From: a virus
Taxonomy: Duplodnaviria > Caudoviricetes
Length of the DNA stretch: 64,000 bases
IMG/VR virus record: IMGVR_UViG_2513237176_000002
Reading direction: 5' to 3' (one strand)
A program made the position numbers and the translations under genes. Under the pieces are notes generated by a model that was not told the DNA's origin, did not search any database, and worked only from the letters and a program-made list of their open reading frames with translations. Below, piece by piece: positions 4,168 to 18,352 of this stretch. Position 1 is the stretch's first letter, and each line of letters begins with the position of its first letter.

Positions 4168-5573
4168 TAACGTGAAAAGTATTTGTGTCCGCTCTGGCCG
4201 CGGTACGCGATGCCTTCGACGCGGATCTCACCGGCGACCTCCAGTACGTCAACCGCCTGATCCATAAGAGAGCCGAGCGCCCCGAGCTTGCCCCGCAGCT
4301 TCGCACCCGAGACACCCTCGTTGCCCGCAACGCGGATGTAGCGCCGCACCCGGTCGACAGCCCGCCTCAGCCGCTCAGCCTCAACCCGCTCTTCGACGAC
4401 CAGCGTGCGTTGCGCTTCGGCTTCACCGGTACGCCGGTTTTGGTCGCGGCCAACCTCCTGCAGCGCCCGTTGACAACGGCCCCGCTGATCATCGGACTCG
4501 GCCATGACCGCGCCCGACAATTCCCAGTCCTCGTCGAGGATGCTGGTTCGCCCGTCGAGGATTGCCAGGGCTGCCGCGACCTTCTCGCGAGTGAGCAACG
4601 CGTGCCCGTCCAAGGCGTCGCCGTCACCGCGTCGGCGGGCCTTGCGGGCGGCGATGATGGTTTCGCGGGCGGCTTCGCAGATCGGCATGACCTTACGCTC
4701 GTTGCGCCCGTGCCCGGTGAACGGCAGCTCGGTCCAGTTCGGCGCCTGCCACACAACTGGGGTGGGCTCCTCCACATCGTCGTCCGGGGCGTCCGGGTCG
4801 TCGCAGGACAGCCACACGAACCGCTGCGGCGTGCCGCCGTCGATCTCGTCGTCGTTGAGTAGCACCCCAGACCGCTTTGGCTGAATGCCCGCCAGCAGGC
4901 ACAGCCGGTACGAATGCTCCGGCACCATGAGCCGTTTCGTCTCGTCCACGTAGAAGAACCCGAGTTGCTCACCCATGGCGGCCTGCCGCAGCTGCGGCAT
5001 GATGGTGGAGGATTGGCGGCCCTTGAGCGAGGCAAGGGTGTCGATCTCCTGAATGGTGACGATGGCGTTGGCGTTCACCATCTCGATCTCGCCTTTGACG
5101 TTGCGCATGAACATGTGGGCAATGCCCTCGCCGGAACCCAGCGGGTACACCGGGGCAACCCGCTGGTCGAGGTCCACGGCTTGCTTGGCGACTTTCTCCG
5201 AGGCGCCCTTGGCTGCTCCTGCCGCGCCGACGAGGCCGATGAACAGGTTCAGCGATGCTTCGGTGCCGACGATTGCTGGGAGTTGGATTCGAGGCGGGGT
5301 CGCAGCGACTACGTGTGCAAGAACGGCGCCCAAGGTGGCCCACGGTGCGACGAGTCGAGCGCGGGCGAACTGCTGGATATGGGTGAGGATCGGCCTGCTC
5401 TTCCAGAAGTGCTCGCGCACGTTGTCGATCCGGTCCGCCTCGGCGGCCGTGAGAACGCCGCGCATCACAGGAGCGGTGCGCTCGGGGGTGACCGGCACCG
5501 GTTCGTCGGCCGGAGGTGCGCTTTCGTTGAGAAGCTCGTTGTCCCAGTGGACTGCGGTGGGGTCGTAGGTCAC
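4167..5573 (-). CDS. DUF3987/YfjI-like P-loop replicative helicase
   Basis: LNLFIGLVGAAGAAKG Walker A, GSGEGI, IQEID Walker B, LAGIQP, GTPQRF; C-terminal wHTH-like end. Confidence 0.75.
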   Translation of the reverse strand: MTYDPTAVHWDNELLNESAPPADEPVPVTPERTAPVMRGVLTAAEADRIDNVREHFWKSRPILTHIQQFARARLVAPWATLGAVLAHVVAATPPRIQLPAIVGTEASLNLFIGLVGAAGAAKGASEKVAKQAVDLDQRVAPVYPLGSGEGIAHMFMRNVKGEIEMVNANAIVTIQEIDTLASLKGRQSSTIMPQLRQAAMGEQLGFFYVDETKRLMVPEHSYRLCLLAGIQPKRSGVLLNDDEIDGGTPQRFVWLSCDDPDAPDDDVEEPTPVVWQAPNWTELPFTGHGRNERKVMPICEAARETIIAARKARRRGDGDALDGHALLTREKVAAALAILDGRTSILDEDWELSGAVMAESDDQRGRCQRALQEVGRDQNRRTGEAEAQRTLVVEERVEAERLRRAVDRVRRYIRVAGNEGVSGAKLRGKLGALGSLMDQAVDVLEVAGEIRVEGIAYRGQSGHKYFSR

Positions 5574-6299: not shown

Positions 6300-6494
6300 G
6301 GACACGAGACTACATCCCTGACGCGGGATTCTCTAGGTATCCCTCGCCAGGCGTGTTACTGTTCCACCTATGCCCACGACGGTTGCCGCTCTGCGCCCCG
6401 ACACCCTCCCCACCCCCGCCAGCACCACCACAGCGGAGGCGGAAGGGTGGATGGAGCGCGCCCAGCCGGCGGTTGCCGGGCCGGCGGTGACGGC

Positions 6495-7526
6495 ATGAAC
6501 AGCCGCCAGCACCTCGCCGAAGACCTCGAACGCCTCAAGAAGCGCACCCAGCAAGTCGGCTGGGTCGCCTGGTTCGTCGCGATCTTCGTCATGATCTACG
6601 GGACGCCGATCGTCTACGGGCTCGCCACCGCCCACGGCATCCCCGCCGGGGTCGCCTGGATGCTGTCCCTCGCCGCCGACGGCGCCCTCGTCGTCGGCCT
6701 CATCGCCACACCCGTCCTCGCCCAGCTCGGCGTCAAAGCCGGATGGGTAGGCACCCTGCGCTGGGTGTCCGGCGGCATCACCTGGGCACTGCAAACCGCG
6801 TCCAGCTGGATCGCCGTGAACGGCCCCGACTGGGTTGGTGTCGGCGTTCACACCGCCGGGCCGGCGCTCCTGTTCTTCGTCGTCGAAGCCGCCAGCTACT
6901 TCCAGCGGAAGGTCTCGACGGCGATCGAGACGAAAGCCCGCGCGCTTGCGGCAGCGGAACAGTCCGACGCCGACCGGCGCACTCACCTCGCCGAAACCGA
7001 AGGAGCCCTGCGGGCCCGCACCGCGGAGCTAACCGCCGCACGTGCCGAGATTGAATCGCTTGCTGAACGGCTTACGGCAATCGGCCAGCACGCTGACAGC
7101 ACCAAGACCGAACTGGCCCTCACCGGTCAGCGGTACGAGAACGAGATCGCGTCGCTGCGGCAAGCTCTCACCGACCAGCGGAACACCCTTACCGCCGAGC
7201 ACGACGAGACAGTGCGTCGGCTCCGGGAGAAGCACCGGGAAGCCCTCACCGCCGCCCGCGCGGAAACCAAGACGGTAAGCCTTACCGCCTACCGCAACCG
7301 GGCCGCCGGCGGAACCCGATCCGCAGCCACCGGTAAGGCCGAGCTGAGCGACGAAGACGCAGTTCAGATGATGCTTACCGCCCACGCCGACCCGAACCAT
7401 GAGTGGTCGAAGAACGCGGTCCGCACCCTGACCGGTGTGGGCCTCAACAGGGCGCCGAAGCTCATCGGCCTTTGGCTTACCGCTGCCACCGAGAAGGCGA
7501 CCGGCAGTAAGGCGGTCGGTGAGTGA
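6495..7526 (+). CDS. Spd-like spread protein (4 TM + coiled coil + C-terminal HTH-like), DUF2637-like
   Basis: Four hydrophobic segments ending in VHTAGPALLFFVVEA, long coiled coil, SKNAVRTLTGVGLNRAPKL; first large gene of the operon containing FtsK/TraB. Confidence 0.7.
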   Translation: MNSRQHLAEDLERLKKRTQQVGWVAWFVAIFVMIYGTPIVYGLATAHGIPAGVAWMLSLAADGALVVGLIATPVLAQLGVKAGWVGTLRWVSGGITWALQTASSWIAVNGPDWVGVGVHTAGPALLFFVVEAASYFQRKVSTAIETKARALAAAEQSDADRRTHLAETEGALRARTAELTAARAEIESLAERLTAIGQHADSTKTELALTGQRYENEIASLRQALTDQRNTLTAEHDETVRRLREKHREALTAARAETKTVSLTAYRNRAAGGTRSAATGKAELSDEDAVQMMLTAHADPNHEWSKNAVRTLTGVGLNRAPKLIGLWLTAATEKATGSKAVGE

Positions 7527-7608
7527 GCCGCCGCCAACCGGTACGCCCCTACCGCAGCCACACCGGTGAGCCGAACGGCCGCCGTCCGACTCTCATCGAG
7601 GAGACCTC

Positions 7609-7713
7609 ATGACCTTCGTTCTGGCGTTCGCCGGCACCGTGCTCGCCGCGCTGGCCGTCATCGCCTACGACCTGTACGCCACCCGCAACCCGCTGACTGG
7701 AGACCCGCGATGA
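7609..7713 (+). CDS. Small membrane peptide (34 aa)
   Basis: GAGGAG RBS; MTFVLAFAGTVLAALAVIAYDLY...; ATGA overlap with next gene. Confidence 0.55.
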   Translation: MTFVLAFAGTVLAALAVIAYDLYATRNPLTGDPR

Positions 7714-7904
7714 CGACCATGCCGCGTGAGGTCGCGATGCGCCGGCCCGCGAACGCTCCCGCCCAGCGCAGCAACGTGATCGAGGGCCGGTTCACGGTCC
7801 GCCGTAGCCCTGCCGCGCAGGCCCTGCGGTTCTTGTTTTACCTGGTCACCGCGTTCCTGCTCGCCGGGCTGCTCCTGTCCCTCGGCACCCAAAACCTGCT
7901 CTGA
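7710..7904 (+). CDS. Small membrane protein (64 aa)
   Basis: C-terminal hydrophobic helix; coupled start. Confidence 0.6.
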   Translation: MTTMPREVAMRRPANAPAQRSNVIEGRFTVRRSPAAQALRFLFYLVTAFLLAGLLLSLGTQNLL

Positions 7905-7932
7905 CCAGCCCAAACTATTGAAGGAGACCGCC

Positions 7933-8499
7933 GTGACCGACGCTGCCACCGCCTACGGGCCCGCGCCGCGGGTGCGTCCCACGGGTGCGCCGTCGCGCCC
8001 GGCGGACCCCCGCCCGCACCTGCGGGCTGTGCCGAACCCGGACACTCTGCAACCTGAAACTGCAACGGAGGAGAACACCCCCTCCGGACACGTTTCCGCA
8101 GGCCAGATCGTTTCGGATGACGCGAATCCGGGTGCCGGGCCGTTGCAGATTGCAGGCTGGCGGGCCGCTGTAGCCCGCTCCCGCGACTACTGGACGCCGC
8201 CCGCGATTCACACCGACCAGCCGGCCTCGATGGCGGAACTGGCCGCCTACGCCCGCACCGCGCCGTGGACCGCCCAAACCAGCGGGCCGCTGCGCACCGC
8301 CGGCGTCATCTACGGATACGGCGTCGCCGTGCCGTACACGTACACCACCCGCTACCGCGAATGGGTCGCCCAGCGACCCGGCCGCCTCCTGCTCCACCTC
8401 GGCGGCATCAAACTCGCCGCCATGACCGGCCCCGGCATCTGGCTGGTCGACCACCTCATCTACCCGGCCGCGCACCTCGTCGGCCAGATCCTCCTCTAG
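7933..8499 (+). CDS. Transfer-region membrane-associated hypothetical protein
   Basis: AAGGAG RBS before GTG; GC3 bias. Confidence 0.7.
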   Translation: MTDAATAYGPAPRVRPTGAPSRPADPRPHLRAVPNPDTLQPETATEENTPSGHVSAGQIVSDDANPGAGPLQIAGWRAAVARSRDYWTPPAIHTDQPASMAELAAYARTAPWTAQTSGPLRTAGVIYGYGVAVPYTYTTRYREWVAQRPGRLLLHLGGIKLAAMTGPGIWLVDHLIYPAAHLVGQILL

Positions 8500-8515
8500 A
8501 AAGGACCCCTCGATC

Positions 8516-9016
8516 ATGGCCGGACGTAATCTCGTCGCCGAACGCGAAGGCGTACAGAAAGCCCAGCAGATCTCCATCTACATCCTCGGCTGGGCGGCCC
8601 AGGCCCTCGGCATCGTCGCCGGCGCCTACGCCGCGAACGCGTGGCCGGGCGGCGCCATCCGCTGGGTGTTCAACCTGATGCCCGGTGACTGGCTGATCCC
8701 GCTCACCCTGTTCATCGGGTTCATCGTGTGGGCCATCGACATCATCAACGACCTCACCCCGAACCAGGCAGCCGTGACCTTCGGGTTCATGGCCCCGATC
8801 CTCGCCCAGGGCACCGACAGCACCCTCGCCCTGCGGGTCCGGGACTGGTCGGATGCGCTGCAGGCCGGTGTCGGCGGGCAGATCGCCCCGTGGGTCGGCA
8901 ACGTCGGCGCGGGCTGGCTGTCGGTGGCGCTCATGGCAACCGCCGTCATCATCGGCAAGCGGGTCCTGCAGAAGCAGGCGTCCGCTGCTGGCCGCGGTGG
9001 TGGGGGTGGCCGCTGA
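8516..9016 (+). CDS. Multi-TM membrane protein of the transfer region
   Basis: 3-4 hydrophobic segments; AAGGA RBS. Confidence 0.75.
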   Translation: MAGRNLVAEREGVQKAQQISIYILGWAAQALGIVAGAYAANAWPGGAIRWVFNLMPGDWLIPLTLFIGFIVWAIDIINDLTPNQAAVTFGFMAPILAQGTDSTLALRVRDWSDALQAGVGGQIAPWVGNVGAGWLSVALMATAVIIGKRVLQKQASAAGRGGGGGR

Positions 9017-10683
9017 TGTGGCTCGTCTCCGGCCTGGTGTTCCTAGCGAACCCGCTTATCGGCGCGGTGCTGCTGATGTCGGCGGCGATCACCACGAACA
9101 TTCGTGCCACGAAGGTCGACGCCGAGTACGCGAAACGCGGTGAACTGCCCCCGACGGCCCGCCTGGTCGACGCCTGGCTGAACCGGCAGAAAGCCGCCGG
9201 GAAGGCACCGGAATCGGCGAAGGTGCGCCCGTACGGGTCGCTGGCGTACGCCCGGCAGCGGTGGCTGGCGATGTGGGAAGACCTGGGGGAGAAGCACCGC
9301 GAGCAGCGCGCCGCCCACAAGAAGCAGCTTGCGGAGGCGAAGAAGAACGGCACCCCGCCGCCGAGCAAGCCGTCGTTGACGGAACAACTGGGCGGTTGGA
9401 AGTGGTCGATTCCCGGTCTGACCCGCCGGGACGAGCCCGGCAGTCCGCCGCCTTCCGCCGCGAGCGCTGACCCGGAGCCGGCTGTCGCCGACGGGCCGGT
9501 CAGCACCTGCGACGAATGCGGCGTCCAGCTGCCCGACGGTGGCTGGAAACACCCGCCCGGCTCGACCTGCCCGAAAGCCGCAAAACCGTCTGGCTCCTCC
9601 GACAGCAACACTGCCGCTCCGGCCGCGCCGGAGGATCCGCTGCTGCGGTTCCTGTCGGATGCGCAGGAAGCGGCACGCCGCAACCCGATGCCCTTCGACC
9701 GGTGCCCGCGCTGCGGCACGACTGCCACGATCACCCCGTCGGGCTGGTGCGAAAAGTGCACCATGCAGGTCCCGCACGGCATGTGCGAGCACTGCCAGGG
9801 CGTGGTCCGCCTCGACGGCACAGTGTGGCGGCACGGCGCCCACTGGCCGTGCCGGCACACCCGTCCCGCGGCCGGCGACACCATTGCCTGCACCAACTGC
9901 CGCACCCGGATCCCGGTGCACCCGGCGATCGCTGACATGGGGGCGTCAGTGCGATGCCAGCACTGTGGCGCCCAGGTCGCCGCCCGCCCACCCAGGCCCG
10001 CCTCTGCCCTGCAGCGCTGTCCTCGGTGCAGCAAATGCGACGGCCCGACCGTCCCGTCGATGAACCAGCTGCGCGGCGGCTTCTGCCCGCGCTGCGACAC
10101 CACCGATCTGCCGGCCGGCAGTGAACGTCACGGCAAATGCGACCGCTGTGGGCTGCCCGGCCGGCTTGTCGTCGCCCGCAAACGCAGCACGGAACTGCTC
10201 CACGACGCCAACGGGTCAACGATTTGCCCCTACGAGACGCCGCAGCTACGCGAACTGCGCCGCACCGATCCGGGCACGGCCCGCATCTACGACGAGATCG
10301 TCGCCAAGCACCTTCGCAACACCCCGGCCGTCGACACGCAGCAGACGGCCAAGACGCCCGTACCAGCCCGAGAAGAGGGAGCATCCATGCCCGAGCATTC
10401 CGGTGAAGTCACCGGCATCCCGTCCGCCGTCCACTACCTGCAGCAGATGGCCGCCGCGCACCGGCAGCACGCCGACAACGAGGCGATGATCGCCACCCTC
10501 GCGGGTTTCCACGTCGGTGCCACCGACCTGGCGCTGGTGCAGCAGGCCATTGCCGCCAGCAACAACGCGGCGGACCTGTACGCCGACGCCGCCACGACGA
10601 TCGACGACGGTAACGCCGCGGTTCGGCAGGGCTACGCGTCCGCGCCGGACGCCGCCGACAAGCACGCCCAGATGGCGGAGTGA
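9016..10683 (+). CDS. Membrane-anchored multi-zinc-ribbon protein with C-terminal ~98-aa helical domain
   Basis: TGATG overlap; N-terminal TM; about six Cys/His clusters; internal RBS+ATG at 10387. Confidence 0.7.
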   Translation: MWLVSGLVFLANPLIGAVLLMSAAITTNIRATKVDAEYAKRGELPPTARLVDAWLNRQKAAGKAPESAKVRPYGSLAYARQRWLAMWEDLGEKHREQRAAHKKQLAEAKKNGTPPPSKPSLTEQLGGWKWSIPGLTRRDEPGSPPPSAASADPEPAVADGPVSTCDECGVQLPDGGWKHPPGSTCPKAAKPSGSSDSNTAAPAAPEDPLLRFLSDAQEAARRNPMPFDRCPRCGTTATITPSGWCEKCTMQVPHGMCEHCQGVVRLDGTVWRHGAHWPCRHTRPAAGDTIACTNCRTRIPVHPAIADMGASVRCQHCGAQVAARPPRPASALQRCPRCSKCDGPTVPSMNQLRGGFCPRCDTTDLPAGSERHGKCDRCGLPGRLVVARKRSTELLHDANGSTICPYETPQLRELRRTDPGTARIYDEIVAKHLRNTPAVDTQQTAKTPVPAREEGASMPEHSGEVTGIPSAVHYLQQMAAAHRQHADNEAMIATLAGFHVGATDLALVQQAIAASNNAADLYADAATTIDDGNAAVRQGYASAPDAADKHAQMAE

Positions 10684-11027
10684 ACGCCGTGACCGAGGAG
10701 AACACCGTGACCGTTCAGCAGTCCGCTGCGGGCGCCCGGCCCGCCAGTGAGATCACCGGGATCCGCTCTGCGGTGACCCGCATGGAGCAGATCGCCGCGC
10801 AGCATCAGACGCTCGGCTCTGGCGAAGGGTTCATCGGTTCCCTGAGCCGCATGGAGGTCGGCGACGACCACCAGCAGAAGGTCCGGGACGCGCAGGAAGC
10901 GTCCGGTGCCGCCGGCGCCGCCTGGGCGGAGGCGGCGGCACAGATTGCCGCGCACAACCTGCCCCTGCACGAGGCGTACCTGAACAACCCGAACGCGGCG
11001 AACAAGCACGCCAACACCAACGAGTAA
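10680..11027 (+). CDS. Small helical protein paralogous to the C-terminal domain of the upstream gene
   Basis: SEITGIRSAV...EVG...AYLNNPNAANKHA aligns with GEVTGIPSAV...HVG...GYASAPDAADKHA. Confidence 0.75.
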   Translation: MNAVTEENTVTVQQSAAGARPASEITGIRSAVTRMEQIAAQHQTLGSGEGFIGSLSRMEVGDDHQQKVRDAQEASGAAGAAWAEAAAQIAAHNLPLHEAYLNNPNAANKHANTNE

Positions 11028-11085
11028 CCAGGTTGGCCCCGCCCACCATGGGCGGGGCCCCGAGATCTGAGGAACGGAGGCAGCG

Positions 11086-13176
11086 ATGCCGACCCAGCAG
11101 AAACCGCAGCAGCCGGCCCGGCAGGCTGCCCCGCTCACCACCCGCGAGAAGATCGAACGTGCCCGGCTGCACGCGCAGACGGCACGCCGCCACGCGCAGA
11201 CCGCGCACAGGTACACGGCCGGGGTGCAGAAGCAGGTCGCCCCGTTTGCCGGCATGGGCCTGCTCGTGCTCGCCGCGACGGCCCTGCACGCGGCGAAGGA
11301 CGCCACCGCCGCCGACGCGGAGATCCTCGGCGGCACGGCCGCCGCCTGTGTGGTCATCGCCGTGGTCGCCGCACACCAGATGCGCCGGCGCCTCGACGAC
11401 CGCAAGAGCCTGCACCGCGGCCTGGCGTTCGTCACCACCTGCGGGGTGTGGCTGATCACTACCACCGCCATCGGCGTGTCCTGGAACGCGGTCGGGTTGC
11501 TCGCCGCCATTGGCACCGCTCTTTCCCTGCACTACCTGCGCAAGGTGCGGATTCCCAACCGCGGCCCGGTGATGCCTGCCCCGCTGCCGGACCCGCTGAA
11601 GCCCGGCGTCAACCGGTACGTGGCCCGCTGGGACGAATACATCGGTTGCCCCGGCGGACAACTGCCCGGCTCGAAATTGGAGTCGCCGGAGCAGGTGAAA
11701 GCCGGGTGGCGGTTCGCGCTGCGGCTGGTCCCCGGCAAGCAGTCCATCGCCGCGCTCATGTCGGCGATGGTGCTGATCCGCGGCGGCCTCGGCCTGACCG
11801 TCGAGCAGGACGTCATCGCCGAACGCCACCCTGTTCTTGAGGAACCCGCCGTCCAGCTGACCGTGGTCACGAAGCCGCAGGTCCGCGACGACCAGGAATG
11901 GCCGGGCCCGCAGACGTTCCGGGACGGCTACGTCGACATGGGCCCGTTCATCGACGGTGAGGGCCACGCCCGGTGGAAGGTGTACACCAAGGACCGCATG
12001 GTCGGCGGTTACATCCAGGGCGGTGCCGGCGCCGGTAAGTCCCGCCTCATCGAGTCGATCGTGATGCCTATCGCCGACTCGCAGACCCATCCGACGGTGG
12101 TGTGGTACGGCGACGGGCAGGGTGGTTCGTCGTCGCCGACACTGATGCGCTGCGCCGATTTCTCGGCACGCACCCACGAGCAGATCAAGCAGATGTTTGC
12201 GTGCGCCATGTTGATCGTCGAGCTGCGCCAGGACGAAAACAGCGTGGAGGACGACCCGGACGAGGACGGCGAGTACGACGACACGATCGGGTTCGAACCC
12301 ACCGCTGACCGACCTGGACTGCTACTCATCCTGGATGAGTGCCACAAACCCATGTCGAAGATCGAGAACGCTGAAGACTGGGTGGTCATCCAGTACATGG
12401 CGATGACCGTGGCCCGCGAAGGACAGAAGGTTGGTGTCCAAGCGATCCTCGCGTCCCAGGAGTCCACGCTCGGCGCGTTCGGTGGGGCCGGCAACAACGC
12501 GGAGATGCTGCGTTCCAACCTGCTCATGGGCAACGGTGTGATGATGCGGTCGAAGGACGCGAACGCCCGCCAGGTGTTCAAGGTCGACGACGATCCGTCG
12601 CAGTTCCCGGTGATGCCCGGCTACGCCCTGCTCATCGACCCAGAGGAAGGTGCCCGCACCGCCCCGTTCCGGGCCTACTTCCTCACCGACCGGCTCCGCA
12701 AAGAATGGCCGTCGAAGATCCGATGGCGGTCGCTGCCCGACGGCGACGCCAATACCGCCGGGATGGCCTATCTGATGCGGCACCAGCTCGCGGAGATGGC
12801 GAAGGAGGAAACCCGCCGCCGGATCAAAGAGCGCCGGGAAGGCCGCGGCATGACCAACCCCCTCGACCGGATCTTCGCGGCGGCGAAGGGTGGCGACGGC
12901 GCCGAACAGGTCACGCCGATCGAGGCGGAGCAGGTGGCGTCATTCCCGGTATGGAACCCGGTCACCGAGCAGGTCCAGGCGCGGCAGATGCATGACAGTC
13001 ACCGCAAGGTGCTGGACGCGCTGAAGGTTGGCATCTGCTCGCCGAAGCCGATCGCGGAAGCCACCGGCATTGGGCAGCGGCAGGTCCACAACCTGCTGGA
13101 CGAGTTGATGGACGAGTTCGGCCGGGTGGAACGTGACGGGCACGGCAAGTACCGGCTGGTGTCCACCGATGCGTGA
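11086..13176 (+). CDS. traB: FtsK/SpoIIIE-family DNA translocase, TraB-like
   Basis: N-terminal TMs, Walker A GGAGAGKS, Walker B LLILDE, AREGQKVG..ILASQ, C-terminal wHTH. Confidence 0.8.
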   Translation: MPTQQKPQQPARQAAPLTTREKIERARLHAQTARRHAQTAHRYTAGVQKQVAPFAGMGLLVLAATALHAAKDATAADAEILGGTAAACVVIAVVAAHQMRRRLDDRKSLHRGLAFVTTCGVWLITTTAIGVSWNAVGLLAAIGTALSLHYLRKVRIPNRGPVMPAPLPDPLKPGVNRYVARWDEYIGCPGGQLPGSKLESPEQVKAGWRFALRLVPGKQSIAALMSAMVLIRGGLGLTVEQDVIAERHPVLEEPAVQLTVVTKPQVRDDQEWPGPQTFRDGYVDMGPFIDGEGHARWKVYTKDRMVGGYIQGGAGAGKSRLIESIVMPIADSQTHPTVVWYGDGQGGSSSPTLMRCADFSARTHEQIKQMFACAMLIVELRQDENSVEDDPDEDGEYDDTIGFEPTADRPGLLLILDECHKPMSKIENAEDWVVIQYMAMTVAREGQKVGVQAILASQESTLGAFGGAGNNAEMLRSNLLMGNGVMMRSKDANARQVFKVDDDPSQFPVMPGYALLIDPEEGARTAPFRAYFLTDRLRKEWPSKIRWRSLPDGDANTAGMAYLMRHQLAEMAKEETRRRIKERREGRGMTNPLDRIFAAAKGGDGAEQVTPIEAEQVASFPVWNPVTEQVQARQMHDSHRKVLDALKVGICSPKPIAEATGIGQRQVHNLLDELMDEFGRVERDGHGKYRLVSTDA

Positions 13177-13177
13177 G

Positions 13178-13429
13178 CTAGTCCTTGATCTCGCGGGCCA
13201 AGTAGACGATCCCGGACCGTTCGGGTTCCTCGGTGGAGATCTCGTACTGGTACACGTCGACAAGCATGAGGATGCGGCAGTTCCGTTTCTCGAAGAAGCC
13301 CACCTTGCGATCAATGAACTTGTCCCACACCTCGACTCGCACACCTGGCCGCGGTTCGAACGGCAGCTTGATGCTGTCGAGCAGCACCTTCTGGTGGTTG
13401 TCGGCGTCGATGAACTTCACCGTGACCAT
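13178..13429 (-). CDS. Hypothetical protein (83 aa), lower GC
   Basis: Fills the gap between traB and the hydrolase; globular composition. Confidence 0.6.
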   Translation of the reverse strand: MVTVKFIDADNHQKVLLDSIKLPFEPRPGVRVEVWDKFIDRKVGFFEKRNCRILMLVDVYQYEISTEEPERSGIVYLAREIKD

Positions 13430-13488
13430 GCGCGCAGTGTAAGCACACTTGCACGCTGCGGCGAACCTGAAGGGGTGAGCGCGCAGTG

Positions 13489-14301
13489 ATGGGGAAGTCG
13501 CATGCTCTGTCCGGCGCCGTCGGTTGGCTCGCCGGCAGCGCCGCGCTGACCGTAGCCGGGGTGTCCCTCGACCCGGCCACCGTGCTGTTCGGTGCCGCGA
13601 TCTCCACCGGGTTCGCCCTCGCGCCGGACGTTGACCATCCGCAGTCCACGATCGCGCACACCCTCGGCTGGGCCACCCGCGGTCTCGCCACCGGAGTCAG
13701 CCGCAGCGCCGCCGCCCTGCGCACCGCGTCCTGCGCGCACTGCTCCACCGTCCCCGACCGGGGCGGGCACCGGGCTGTCACGCACACTGCTGCCGGTGCC
13801 GCGTTCGCCGGCTTGGTCGCCGCGAACCTGTGCCTGTGGGTCGGCCGGGGTGCCGCCCTGTGGGTCATCGCGATCGCCGTGTGGCTGGCCGCCCACTCCG
13901 CGCTGTCGTCGAGGACGCGGGCGCGGATCGGTGACATGATCCTGCCCGGCCGGTTCCGGCGTCTCGGCAAAGGAGCCCACCGCCTCGCCGCCGCTGTCGG
14001 GGCGGTGATGGTGGCCGGGCTGGTCGCCGCGATGGCGAACAGCGCGCTTCCCGCTGACGGCCTGTGGTGGATCGGCCTCGCCGTGTTCTGGGGCTGGCTC
14101 GCCCATATCCTCGGCGACGGCCTCACGTTCTCGGCAGTCCCGCTGTGGTGGCCGATCCCGATCCGGGGCTGCCGGTGGACGAACGTCGGCACCCCGAGGT
14201 GGATGCGATTCCGCACCGGCTCCCGCACCGAAACCGGTGTGGTGTGGCTGATGCTGCTCATCGGTGCCGGCTCGATCGCACTGCTCGGGAGCGCCTGGTG
14301 A
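13489..14301 (+). CDS. YdjM-like membrane-bound metal-dependent hydrolase
   Basis: MGKSH, PDVDHPQSTI, HRAVTHT, AHILGDGLT motifs. Confidence 0.9.
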   Translation: MGKSHALSGAVGWLAGSAALTVAGVSLDPATVLFGAAISTGFALAPDVDHPQSTIAHTLGWATRGLATGVSRSAAALRTASCAHCSTVPDRGGHRAVTHTAAGAAFAGLVAANLCLWVGRGAALWVIAIAVWLAAHSALSSRTRARIGDMILPGRFRRLGKGAHRLAAAVGAVMVAGLVAAMANSALPADGLWWIGLAVFWGWLAHILGDGLTFSAVPLWWPIPIRGCRWTNVGTPRWMRFRTGSRTETGVVWLMLLIGAGSIALLGSAW

Positions 14302-14981: not shown

Positions 14982-15344
14982 CTACCTGACGGTGGCGCGG
15001 CGGTCCTTCACGCCGGAGTTGATCGCGGCGCGTTGCACGGCGGTGTCGCGGAGCAAGCCGAAGTAGACCGCGACGGCGATGCCGAAGTTCACGGCGATGC
15101 CGTAGCCGACCTGCCACGCGTCGAACGACTCCCCGGTCTGGGTGGCGCCGAGCGCGGCCTCGAGGAACGCCTTCACCGCGGACAACGCCAGGAGGACGAG
15201 GCCTTTGGTGAACGCCGACCAGGACGACTTCATGAGCAGGCCGGCGAGCAGCGGCAGGATCACCGTCAGCGCGAGGGAAAGCAGCCCGGCGGGGGAGGCC
15301 TCGAACAGGTAGGTGGGCAGGGTGGGGAAGACGATCGAGTCCAT
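14982..15344 (-). CDS. Putative holin
   Basis: 3 TM, ILPLLAGLLMKSSW...KGLVLLALS pattern of actinophage holins, basic C-terminus, AGGAG RBS. Confidence 0.7.
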   Translation of the reverse strand: MDSIVFPTLPTYLFEASPAGLLSLALTVILPLLAGLLMKSSWSAFTKGLVLLALSAVKAFLEAALGATQTGESFDAWQVGYGIAVNFGIAVAVYFGLLRDTAVQRAAINSGVKDRRATVR

Positions 15345-15372
15345 GGGTGTCTCCTGCGGGGTGAGGGTGTGC

Positions 15373-15394
15373 GGAACTACAGGCCTGTAGTTCC
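15373..15394. promoter_or_regulatory. Perfect 22-bp palindrome
   Basis: GGAACTACAGG|CCTGTAGTTCC between divergent genes. Confidence 0.6.
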
Positions 15395-15439
15395 TGGTCA
15401 GGGGGTGCGCCCGCAGGGTGGCGGGCTTAGCGTCGATGG

Positions 15440-15646
15440 ATGGCCGAGCGGATCATCGGGGCGATGCGGACAGCCGACGGCTACTGGCGGGTTGAGGTCG
15501 TCAAAGAGGGCCGCGGTCAGTGGTTCCGGGTGTGGCACGGCGCGACCGTGGTCCATGACAGAGCCGGGATCAGCACGGTGCAGCGGATCCTGGGCGACAC
15601 TTTCGACACGCTCCAGCCTGTGGAGATCGAGTCCGGCGCGGCCTGA
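15440..15646 (+). CDS. Hypothetical protein (68 aa)
   Basis: Globular beta-rich composition. Confidence 0.6.
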   Translation: MAERIIGAMRTADGYWRVEVVKEGRGQWFRVWHGATVVHDRAGISTVQRILGDTFDTLQPVEIESGAA

Positions 15647-15857
15647 CCGCATGCCTCTGGGCGAGCATCGAAACGGGCCGCCTAGCAGCCACGTTGATCA
15701 ATTCGCCGTGAGATAATCAAGGGGCACAAAAGGCGAGCCCGGACGCGGAGCTACCAACTCCGGCCGGGCTCTTGATCGCCGCTAGGAGGCGACCCACGAT
15801 GCACCCTATTCTGCCATGCCCTGAGAACGTCTGTGCGATCAACGGGCAGGTGTTCGC

Positions 15858-16676
15858 ATGAAGGTAATCCGCGTCATGCCCGACGAGGGATGGGTGCCGG
15901 TCGCCAATGCCGCCGCCCGAGACCACCGTCTGAGTTGGCGCGCGCGGGGCCTGCTGCTTGAACTGCTCTCGTACCCCGACGGCTGGGAGACCAGTGTTGA
16001 CAAGCTGGTAGCGCAGGCACGCCGCGAAGGATCGGCCAGTGAAGGCCGACTCGCCATGCGTACCGCCATGAAAGAACTCGCCGACCTCGGATACGTCACC
16101 TACCGGCGCGGCCACGACGAGCACGGCAGGTGGACGACGGAGATGGTCGTCAGCGATGTACCCGGCAGCCCCGAAGCCTCGGACCGACGTACCAAAAACC
16201 GGAACGTCGGAATTCCGGAACCTCGGCTGCCCGGAACGTCGGAGAACCAGACGTCGGAGGATTGGTCCGTTACTAATAAGACGTACACGGACACGGTCAC
16301 GAATACGGATCTTCAAAGAGGTTCCAACGAACATTCCACGTCGCTCGCTTCGCTCGCTGCCGCCGCTGACGCGGCGACGCGAATGAACGACCAGAAGCCG
16401 ACGTTGGACGAGACGTATGCACTCGTCGACCGCATGCCGAAAGAGGTGCTGGCGAAAGCTTTGCTCGACCTCGAACGCCGCCGGGCAAGGATCTACCGAG
16501 AGGCGCGACGAGGAGCGATCGGCCAGTTCAAGCGGGAAAGTCCCGGAGTCTTCCGGGAAGGAAACTCATATGCGCGAGTCGACAACCTCAGCTACAAGTA
16601 CGCCGTGCAGCACTACTTCCCGGACCTGCCGACGTGGATGGAGAAACCGCTCGGCTTGTTGCCGGTGAGGGGTTGA
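15858..16676 (+). CDS. Phage-type wHTH replication initiator-like protein
   Basis: VANAAARDHRLSWRARGLLLELLSYPDGW...MKELADLGYV; internal iteron-like repeats. Confidence 0.7.
   Translation: MKVIRVMPDEGWVPVANAAARDHRLSWRARGLLLELLSYPDGWETSVDKLVAQARREGSASEGRLAMRTAMKELADLGYVTYRRGHDEHGRWTTEMVVSDVPGSPEASDRRTKNRNVGIPEPRLPGTSENQTSEDWSVTNKTYTDTVTNTDLQRGSNEHSTSLASLAAAADAATRMNDQKPTLDETYALVDRMPKEVLAKALLDLERRRARIYREARRGAIGQFKRESPGVFREGNSYARVDNLSYKYAVQHYFPDLPTWMEKPLGLLPVRG
16199..16259 (+). repeat. Four iteron-like repeats, 16-bp period
   Basis: CCGGAACGTCGGA 16199, CCGGAACCTCGG 16215, CCGGAACGTCGGA 16231, CCAGACGTCGGA 16247. Confidence 0.7.
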
Positions 16677-17742: not shown

Positions 17743-17943
17743 TCAGCTGCCGTCTTGCCCCGGCCGCCGTTCTTTGATCCACCTTTCGACGTCTGCAGCC
17801 AGCCACACTTTGCCCTGGCCGAGCTCGGCGACGGGCGCGGGGAACTTCGGGTGGCTGGTGAGGGCGTAGACGCGCTGCCGGCTGATGTTGCCGAGTCGGG
17901 CGCGGATCTCGTGGGCGCCCATCAGCTTGAGCCTAGATGTCAT
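17743..17943 (-). CDS. AlpA-family DNA-binding protein
   Basis: LMGAHEIRARLGNISRQRVY...FPAP...GKVWLAADVERW; TATGCT -10 just upstream (leaderless). Confidence 0.85.
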   Translation of the reverse strand: MTSRLKLMGAHEIRARLGNISRQRVYALTSHPKFPAPVAELGQGKVWLAADVERWIKERRPGQDGS

Positions 17944-18127
17944 GAGACCAGCATAGGCATCAGTCAAGAGACATGGCGGTTGCCGATCCGAACCCACGGC
18001 TGGCGCCCATCCCCGAAGGCACATTCTCGCGGGAAGCTGGGTTGACGGACCGCATCTCTTCCAACCGAGCTGCTGACCAAACACACTAGCTGGTGTGGCA
18101 GGCCTGCCGAGCGGGGAAGGTGCAGAG

Positions 18128-18352
18128 ATGAGCGACGTCTTCCGACTGTGCGTTGAAACCACTGACGGAGCCTCAACAAACATTGACAAGGTGCCAGCAA
18201 CAGCCGTGATGGAAACGATGAATCGCTACGTCAACCGGCTGGGAGACGGTTTGTCGTTCATCGCCGCAGCTGGTCCCGTGTCATGGACCTGGGACGAGAT
18301 TCACGCCATCCGCCTGGTGCGGGGCAGCTACACCGTCGAGGAGTATCCGTAA
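18128..18352 (+). CDS. Hypothetical protein (74 aa)
   Basis: GAAGG RBS; followed by hairpins. Confidence 0.55.
   Translation: MSDVFRLCVETTDGASTNIDKVPATAVMETMNRYVNRLGDGLSFIAAAGPVSWTWDEIHAIRLVRGSYTVEEYP

Follow-up and report, generated by a model that had tools for sequence, protein, structure and literature searches.

The 64,000-nucleotide stretch of viral DNA analysed here (IMG/VR record IMGVR_UViG_2513237176_000002, Caudoviricetes; hereafter the window, with positions counted from its first letter) carries two tandem copies of a small protein module immediately upstream of a gene for an FtsK-type ATPase. Together they represent an accessory domain, so far undescribed, of a divergent transfer system of the TraB type, and the ESX label suggested for it in a preliminary description of the window is unsupported. 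The module itself is a previously undescribed, acidic helical-hairpin domain of ~95 amino acids (aa) that is absent from Pfam, NCBIfam and PHROG. We propose that it is the dedicated partner of one clade of actinomycete translocases of the TraB/TcpA/FtsK type, with an inferred role as a cytoplasmic docking and assembly module, and place the probability of this reading at about one half.

Copy A (compared as 10387-10680 and annotated as 10387-10683, + strand; 98 aa if read from an internal start, acidic, isoelectric point (pI) 4.7) and copy B (compared as 10680-11024 and annotated as 10680-11027, + strand; 115 aa from a GTG at 10680) align without gaps, with 34 identities in 92 positions (37%; 53% positives; E 2e-10 in BLASTP with compositional adjustment). 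Their paralogy is real and no artefact of composition. The tandem ~100-aa paralogues described previously are therefore borne out, and the elements listed for them (E[VI]TGI.SAV, a central VG turn, Y...P.AA.KHA, and a ribosome-binding-site-like GAGGGAG with an ATG at 10387) are all present. The 98-aa module was taken as a unit beginning at 10387, which stands as one part of the picture; the same residues also form, in frame, the C-terminal domain of a protein of 555 aa (9016-10683, + strand). This tethered protein, defined by its translation, transmembrane prediction and CxxC motifs, begins with an N-terminal transmembrane helix (aa 1-27) and a conserved basic juxtamembrane stretch, continues through a variable, Cys-rich zinc-ribbon middle with nine CxxC motifs (zinc-ribbon matches in Pfam are weak) and ends in copy A, and its orthologues on metagenome contigs L001 and L002 are built alike. 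Copy B is a free duplicate in the sub-lineage of the window. Used alone as a query it retrieves the C-termini of the orthologous long proteins at two metagenome loci (phmmer E 5.8e-10 and 1.3e-6), and the 8.77-Mb host genome, searched with the family profile, yields exactly copies A and B and no others. The start of the free gene is ambiguous within 10680-10710: the GTG at 10680 overlaps the upstream stop codon (GTGA), the GTG at 10689 is the start in the database record, and the GTG at 10707, which lies behind GAGGAG, gives a 106-aa product near the lengths of the homologues. Initiation at 10689 or 10707 instead of 10680 may thus be the actual situation.

An AlphaFold2 (AF2) model of copy B (predicted local distance difference test score, pLDDT, 78.8) supports the earlier view of the modules as helical hairpins. 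The predicted antiparallel hairpin consists of a kinked helix 1 (residues 28-46 and 49-57), a long helix 2 (62-92) and two short C-terminal helices (94-102 and 106-111); the conserved residues A71, S75, A78, W82 and A85 of helix 2 are spaced 4-3-4-3 and so lie on one helical face. An initial search from the free protein retrieved 22 relatives (alignment A1) whose C-terminus, NK.ANTNE, is strikingly invariant, and an exhaustive profile search from a broader domain alignment of 33 sequences (A3) raised the family to 542 cluster representatives at E<=1e-3, 381 of them at E<=1e-10. Over ~95 aa the consensus reads EVTG...AQEAS..AAAW...EAY...PxAGxK, comprising an N-terminal E-V-T-G-(I/L), the central V-G turn, AQEAS..AAAW in helix 2 and a terminal EAY...P.AG.K; copy A of the window has Tyr in place of the conserved Trp, and Tyr or Phe occupies this position across the copy A proteins. 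The modules are acidic (pI 4.7-5.7) and carry neither a signal peptide nor a transmembrane segment. Among 166 retrieved proteins the module is at the extreme C-terminus in 131 (median length 313 aa), free-standing in 24 and N-terminal in 11, and is never internal. Scans of the module and most operon proteins against Pfam, NCBIfam and PHROG yielded nothing useful for the module, with zero matches for copy B, and an Atlas feature search gave no usable match, its structure rows being generic helical proteins obtained with a poor model.

The module is tied to its genomic position. In the window it belongs to a conserved block that runs, all on the + strand, from p193 (193 aa; 7918-8499), with homologues in the same position in 12 loci, through tm166 (8516-9016), a 166-aa multi-pass membrane protein with transmembrane segments and homologues in the same position in 10 loci, to the tethered module protein and the ATPase, so that the pair does lie within an operon of membrane proteins, as had been stated. 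Contigs L001 and L002 repeat this order with proteins of 187 aa, 165 aa and ~370 aa (the tethered form), a free module and a ~690-aa ATPase. In a sample of 401 genomes from the family of the host, which are related so that counts are not independent, the module was present in 12, and ten further loci showed p193, tm166, a protein of 245-722 aa with a C-terminal module and an orthologue of the ATPase directly downstream. When the genomes were searched again with an ATPase profile, and the upstream regions rescanned with the broader module profile, a module gene stood immediately upstream of the ATPase in 18/18 testable loci of the clade (E<=1e-100), one further locus at a contig edge falling outside this number. 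The co-occurrence with a single clade of FtsK-family ATPases that a neighbourhood survey was expected to reveal is therefore strict. No module was detectable at three loci with ATPases matching at E 1e-53 to 1e-79, nor at four classical TraB-like loci. An Amycolatopsis plasmid whose ATPase is 27% identical does encode an upstream protein that ends in a module (E 4e-10), an example detected only by profile, since tblastn of copy B against plasmids gave no match. We found no module in a class-wide sample of 397 genomes outside the family of the host, and for this reason make no claim of a wide taxonomic distribution.

The tandem pair is a minority arrangement. The window, L001 and L002 combine a tethered with a free copy, as does genome G021 with sequences that are very different, and all other loci have a single tethered copy. 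At the G021 locus (L095, G021:C1:1599800-1605665) a very divergent tethered and free pair lies upstream of the ATPase, which places the tandem layout beyond the lineage of the window; the ATPase gene is present twice in this genome of 3.5 Mb (the second copy near G021:C1:2620944), each time with one in-frame TAA. A related ATPase on the Saccharothrix plasmid CP091383.1 is preceded by a protein (L086:4137-5456) that has an Ala-rich helical C-terminus that is module-like by eye, goes undetected by the profile and is left unclassified; it may represent a more distant branch of the family.

The ATPase (11086-13176, + strand; 696 aa) is a TraB-like translocase with N-terminal membrane helices, an FtsK/TcpA-type P-loop motor (Walker A GGAGAGKS) and a C-terminal winged helix, as judged from profile comparison and from Foldseek searches with an AF2 model. 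At the level of single sequences it is remote: PF01580 (FtsK_SpoIIIE) does not match it at E<=0.1, it lies outside the 16 matches to this family in the genome at E<=0.01, and a single-sequence search of the PDB returned no match. A profile of 12 orthologues (A2) matched the Thermomonospora EccC structure 4nh0 over the Walker A-B region (E 1.2e-4), followed by HerA proteins. The AF2 model (pLDDT 72) found the pCW3 coupling protein TcpA (6o1w, E 7e-15) and the FtsK motors 2iut, 2ius and 6t8o (E ~1e-13), all ahead of EccC/EssC and HerA. Hydrophobic helices span aa 51-146, and the winged helix is seen both as a helix-helix-helix-strand-strand arrangement at 637-691 in the AF2 model and as a profile match of the winged helix-turn-helix (wHTH) type at 625-677. 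Its language-model neighbours in Atlas are actinomycete FtsK_SpoIIIE proteins with MarR/IclR helix-turn-helix (HTH) domains, and remote relatives (24-27% identity) reside on plasmids of Pseudonocardia, Amycolatopsis, Saccharothrix, Streptomyces and Nocardiopsis. Because hhalign of the ATPase profile against the genuine FtsK of locus L030 aligned only the membrane helices (probability 8.6%), the FtsK assignment rests on the fold and the PDB profile matches; with these it is supported, and the pair does adjoin an FtsK-type ATPase gene as described. From the model, the architecture looks like that of TraB, with one motor and a wHTH in a divergent clade, and not like the multi-domain EccC. Neither the ATPase nor the module had any match by tblastn or blastn in 50,697 phage records.

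The way in which the module is expressed appears to be conserved as well. Six codons before EVTG of copy A lies the in-frame ATG (10387), preceded by the Shine-Dalgarno (SD)-like sequence GAGAAGAGGGAG (10370-10389, + strand; anti-SD duplex -9.6 kcal/mol). A strong SD 5-9 nt before an in-frame ATG or GTG, with the start 3-10 codons before EVTG, was found in all 13 tethered genes examined. The signal varies in sequence (AAGGAG, GGAGGA and GAAGGAG, with GAGGGAG in the window), as do the residues encoded there (EGDD, GGT, KESD, KEIR, QEDI), and the anti-SD duplex reaches -8.9 kcal/mol or lower in 13/13 genes, compared to a background of 0.5% of other 12-codon windows in the same open reading frames (ORFs). 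The 13 loci are related and do not count as independent events, while their nucleotide contexts differ. A Met occurs within the 12 residues before the motif in 86 of the 131 C-terminal-type database members. The tethered form is conserved too, since body and module are joined without an intervening stop codon in all 13 genes. These signals suggest that the module is probably made in both tethered and free form. Nested in-frame genes are known from phage lambda (C/Nu3) and from CheA-L/CheA-S; the likeness is that an internal SD and in-frame start would yield the C-terminal domain separately, while there is no homology to either and the module signal is inferred from its conservation in 13/13 loci.

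Downstream, a GC-rich hairpin without a U-tract (11028-11070, + strand, core stem 11035-11059; minimum free energy -37.1 kcal/mol, z -4.2) separates the stop codon of copy B from the SD of the ATPase gene. Hairpins with an 11-16-bp stem and no U-tract follow the last module gene and precede the ATPase SD in 13/13 loci (the window, L001, L002 and the ten single-module loci L023-L029, L031, L034 and L035), and their stem sequences differ. Such a hairpin might act as an intra-operon attenuator or as a stabiliser of RNA ends, keeping the module in excess over the ATPase.

In its N-terminal form the module heads variable proteins. On three replicons (G307:C10, G075:C167 and G384:C2) module-headed genes share the replicon with the ATPase operon, which is the case for 3/3, and encode the module followed by unrelated regions of 270-660 aa. 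The 11 proteins of this type thus combine a conserved N-terminal domain with variable C-terminal cargo that includes toxin-type enzymes: a PF03496 ADP-ribosyltransferase (ART) domain lies at the C-terminus of L037-592 (592 aa) and of the database members P0084 and P0138, and two paralogues on one replicon are 77% identical over the 91 aa of the header and ~29% identical in the cargo. From sequence, the header form is the architecture of an address domain with variable cargo and agrees with a protein address that an FtsK-type machine would handle. G307:C10 carries three tandem module-headed genes (L037:6732-11338, - strand) and a distant fourth (L036:6664-8316, - strand), of which two end in ART-like domains with motifs of the R-S-E type. 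On G075:C167 (L030:5558-9835, + strand) a complete FtsK of 807 aa (4TM, alpha, motor, gamma) directly precedes a module-headed protein of 587 aa, whose cargo resembles that of a 663-aa protein in L037 and has no relative in the PDB or Pfam. Neighbours of the header genes include an intein-bearing SNF2 helicase, DUF1643, DUF5999 and zeta toxin; the SNF2-family helicase gene (L037:12529-15570, - strand), on a plasmid-like contig, is split by an intein with Hint and LAGLIDADG homing endonuclease domains. Two of the ART-type genes are followed by small ORFs of 94 and 100 aa that are mutually unrelated and match no family, and no convincing immunity gene was found beside the ART-type header genes examined, leaving the idea of immunity unsupported. 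The contigs of the free-standing and ART-type database members are too short to show gene context.

Headers of polymorphic toxins and polyvalent proteins likewise join a conserved N-terminal domain to highly variable cargo, including ARTs, on conjugative elements (PMC5512222), one example being ArdC-N, a header proposed to serve delivery by conjugation systems (Iyer et al. 2017, PMC5512222). The header form of the module matches this idea of effectors that conjugative elements and phages deliver together with DNA (PMC5512222). The routes of the known headers are type IV, type VI or type VII secretion systems (T4SS, T6SS, T7SS) or the phage head; by analogy the module would differ in standing beside a TraB-type translocase. 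We know of no proposed header for dsDNA translocases of the TraB type.

Among known systems of DNA transfer, TraB-type conjugation is considered the simplest, with one FtsK-like ATPase and a set of poorly understood Spd membrane proteins, and we know of no mechanism assigned to its accessory proteins. The preliminary description held that classical TraB systems lack a pair of this kind. This is partly right: orf108 of pSVH1 and traA of pSN22-type plasmids do lie upstream of traB, but they are single genes, and TraA shows no detectable similarity to the module. A small gene upstream of traB is not new in itself. In pSN22, traA is known to affect pock formation and not transfer. On two small Streptomyces plasmids traA (173-183 aa) is directly upstream of traB, and its product scores ~5 bits against the module profile with an hhalign probability of 0.1%. 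The pSVH1 operon runs spdB3-spd79-spdB2-orf108-traB, and Orf108, a protein of 108 aa, self-interacts and co-sediments with peptidoglycan, for which it would require an unknown export route according to its authors; a stop codon in orf108 left transfer and pock formation unchanged (PMC4447253). Orf108 is likened to the module here by its published size and position. In general terms the Streptomyces TraB operons share with the window an FtsK-like translocase with membrane anchor and wHTH, Spd-like membrane proteins and a small gene directly upstream, whereas the window ATPase has diverged beyond the reach of PF01580 and shares only 24-27% identity with its plasmid relatives. Compared to the TraB systems described in the literature searched, the combination of tethered and free expression, the duplication and the use as a header are new as far as our searches show.

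We suggest the following arrangement for the proposed partner of the translocase. The zinc-ribbon body and copy A of the 555-aa protein most likely face the cytoplasm, because of the N-terminal transmembrane helix with its basic stretch, the nine CxxC motifs and the lack of a signal peptide on the free forms, and copy A is most likely also translated alone from the conserved internal SD and ATG. The tethered copy would mark a membrane site beside the translocase; free copies would pair with it or with each other into helical bundles, using the conserved Ala/Ser/Trp face of helix 2; and the resulting assembly would dock onto, or scaffold, the ATPase complex. The hairpin 3' of the module gene would hold the module in excess over a toxic ATPase, and an N-terminal module on variable proteins, some of them ARTs, could serve as the address that brings these to the translocase. 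Several points weigh against this proposal. ATPase binding, heterodimer formation and topology are predictions, many functions would suit a helical hairpin, and the support for the internal start comes from sequence signals. The module is, on the sequences compared, not general to TraB systems, and co-residence of headers and operon is known from three replicons. Furthermore, orf108 is dispensable in pSVH1, and if the two are equivalent the role of the module may be subtle. An unlikely extension, offered tentatively, is that the module is the protein address of a TraB-type dsDNA conjugation machine, by which tagged proteins including ARTs would be recruited and passed to the recipient hypha with or ahead of the DNA; the transfer of tagged proteins into recipients is speculative.

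Alternatively, as first suggested, the modules could be very divergent WXG100/Esx-like substrates, a secreted heterodimer that is exported by or regulates the adjacent FtsK-family ATPase in a hybrid of TraB and a type VII-like machine. The likeness to EsxA-EsxB (PF06013) beside EccC/EssC lies in the size of ~100 aa, the predicted antiparallel hairpin, the tandem paralogues of the window and the neighbouring FtsK-superfamily ATPase, whose profile has EccC as its top PDB sequence match; furthermore the module heads variable, toxin-like and ART-bearing proteins as WXG/LXG domains head T7SS toxins, and the C-terminal tail of the free copy is invariant. The ~100-aa helix-turn-helix hairpin of WXG100 proteins is seen in the AF2 model, with hairpin-type matches over residues 22-109. 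The defining motifs are not: W-x-G is replaced by a turn reading (M/G)xV(G/S/D), and YxxxD/E by an invariant Tyr followed by xxxP, an acidic residue after the Tyr occurring only at +5 in copy A and nowhere in copy B or the N-terminal type. The preliminary description had recorded the absence of Trp and a non-canonical Tyr motif; the conserved Trp of the family lies ~21 residues into helix 2. PF06013 matched none of 23 family members at E<=10, and a profile search of PDB sequences at E<=10 found no Esx chain. Against genuine WXG100 proteins (30 were collected from the host and its relatives for comparison) a 46-sequence module alignment reached an hhalign probability of 1.7% (E 0.03, 33 columns), whereas WXG100 subgroups of the same genomes recover one another at 60-98%. 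The fold matches of the AF2 model are a mix of ROP, ESCRT-III, designed bundles, SMC coiled coils and several Esx chains (among them 4i0x, 3fav, 2vrz and 4j7k). In Foldseek against the PDB all have E>0.6 and the Esx chains E>=1.4, and VIA-wide matches lie at Z 8-9, values flagged as common for helical models, EsxEF (4i0x, Z 8.3) being tied with dozens of unrelated hairpins. Esx chains thus score no better than these, and the fold matches count neither for nor against kinship. The surroundings do not support the ESX-like half of the supposed hybrid, as the ATPase has a single motor and a wHTH and ranks TcpA and FtsK above EccC, no EccB/D/E, mycosin or other T7SS family was found in the module operon in Pfam and NCBIfam scans, and most loci have one, membrane-tethered copy. 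The host has genuine WXG100 pairs elsewhere in its genome (39-59 bits), and its EccC-type genes (1280-1484 aa) are sited away from the window. Canonical pairs lie on G000:C1 at 316017-316601 and within 1465225-1473831, where the pair at 1465225-1465846 is followed, after a few kb, by an EccC-type gene for 1334 aa (matches at 1471711-1473831) and belongs to a regular T7SS unrelated to the window pair. An ESX annotation is therefore tempting but unsupported, as neither motif, Pfam, hhalign nor PDB profile indicates kinship: the module fits the WXG100 fold class, membership of the family is not supported, and its logic resembles that of WXG100/LXG proteins with EccC without detectable kinship to WXG100. 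We consider the reading as secreted WXG100/Esx-like substrates improbable.

Two further explanations keep the module within TraB biology, and we give each of them only a small chance. As an Orf108-like envelope anchor of the Spd/TraB translocon, it would fix the DNA channel to the septal wall; this agrees with the size of the module and its position relative to the ATPase, with the self-interaction and peptidoglycan co-sedimentation of Orf108 (PMC4447253) and with Spd-like membrane proteins upstream in the window operon too, but any homology to Orf108 would be conjectural, the TraA proteins of pSN22-type plasmids are dissimilar, and an acidic module with no signal peptide, fused behind zinc ribbons of cytoplasmic type and placed at the head of ART-bearing proteins, is poorly explained by an anchor in the wall. 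Similarly doubtful is a role as stoichiometric inhibitor or chaperone, in which the module, as a Kor-like safeguard, would keep a toxic translocase inactive until mating and be supplied in excess through internal start, duplicate and hairpin. Unregulated traB is lethal in Streptomyces (PMC4447253), and both the strict adjacency to the ATPase and an expression design favouring module excess (internal SD and ATG, extra free copy, attenuator-like hairpin in 13/13 loci) would suit such a safeguard. It leaves the membrane-tethered form and the N-terminal copies on variable cargo unexplained, however, the known kil-override in TraB plasmids is transcriptional (TraR), and binding to the ATPase is presumed. 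Finally, the copies are 21-27% Ala in a region of 70% GC, and the similarity might have been a by-product of Ala-rich, high-GC coding, with the small ORF no true gene. We regard this as refuted, and its probability as negligible, by an E-value of 2e-10 despite compositional adjustment, by the conservation of non-Ala motifs across 381 database clusters at E<=1e-10, by synteny conserved in at least 18 loci and by a GC content at third codon positions of 0.89. The reading as a dedicated docking and assembly partner of the translocase remains the one that we prefer.

The module operon is embedded in a tailed prophage within high-GC actinomycete DNA. It is part of a + strand block (6447-14301) headed by a gene for a 359-aa membrane and coiled-coil protein (6447-7526; phrog_25954, E 4e-12; with transmembrane segments and an orthologue in L001) and closed, 3' of the ATPase, by a gene for a membrane-bound metal-dependent hydrolase of the YdjM family (13486-14301; PF04307, E 2.8e-18), which also follows the ATPase in L001. 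One flank of the block holds a polymerase/primase gene (4170-5573) and an HTH gene, and the other holds a holin (14982-15344), an initiator (15858-16676) and an excisionase-like gene, with tape measure, major head protein, protease, portal, large terminase and DnaB farther out. The prophage genes occupy 4170-5573, 14982-16676, 17743-18189 and 21176-52119 of the window, and the protease is fused to an RNA-ligase-like region. In L002, lysis-type genes including one of endolysin type are kept beside the equivalent block.

These results define a family of accessory domains that is strictly coupled to one translocase clade and has an unusual expression design, with tethered, internal-start and duplicated free forms and a hairpin before the ATPase gene. 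The family offers a testable handle on the assembly of the translocon and on its handling of protein as well as DNA, and, with the present copy lying within a tailed prophage, it also bears on the question of phage-conjugation hybrids. If the module does prove to be a protein address, it would mark a protein-delivery branch of actinomycete single-ATPase conjugation, here carried by a prophage, that arose independently of the WXG100-EccC logic.

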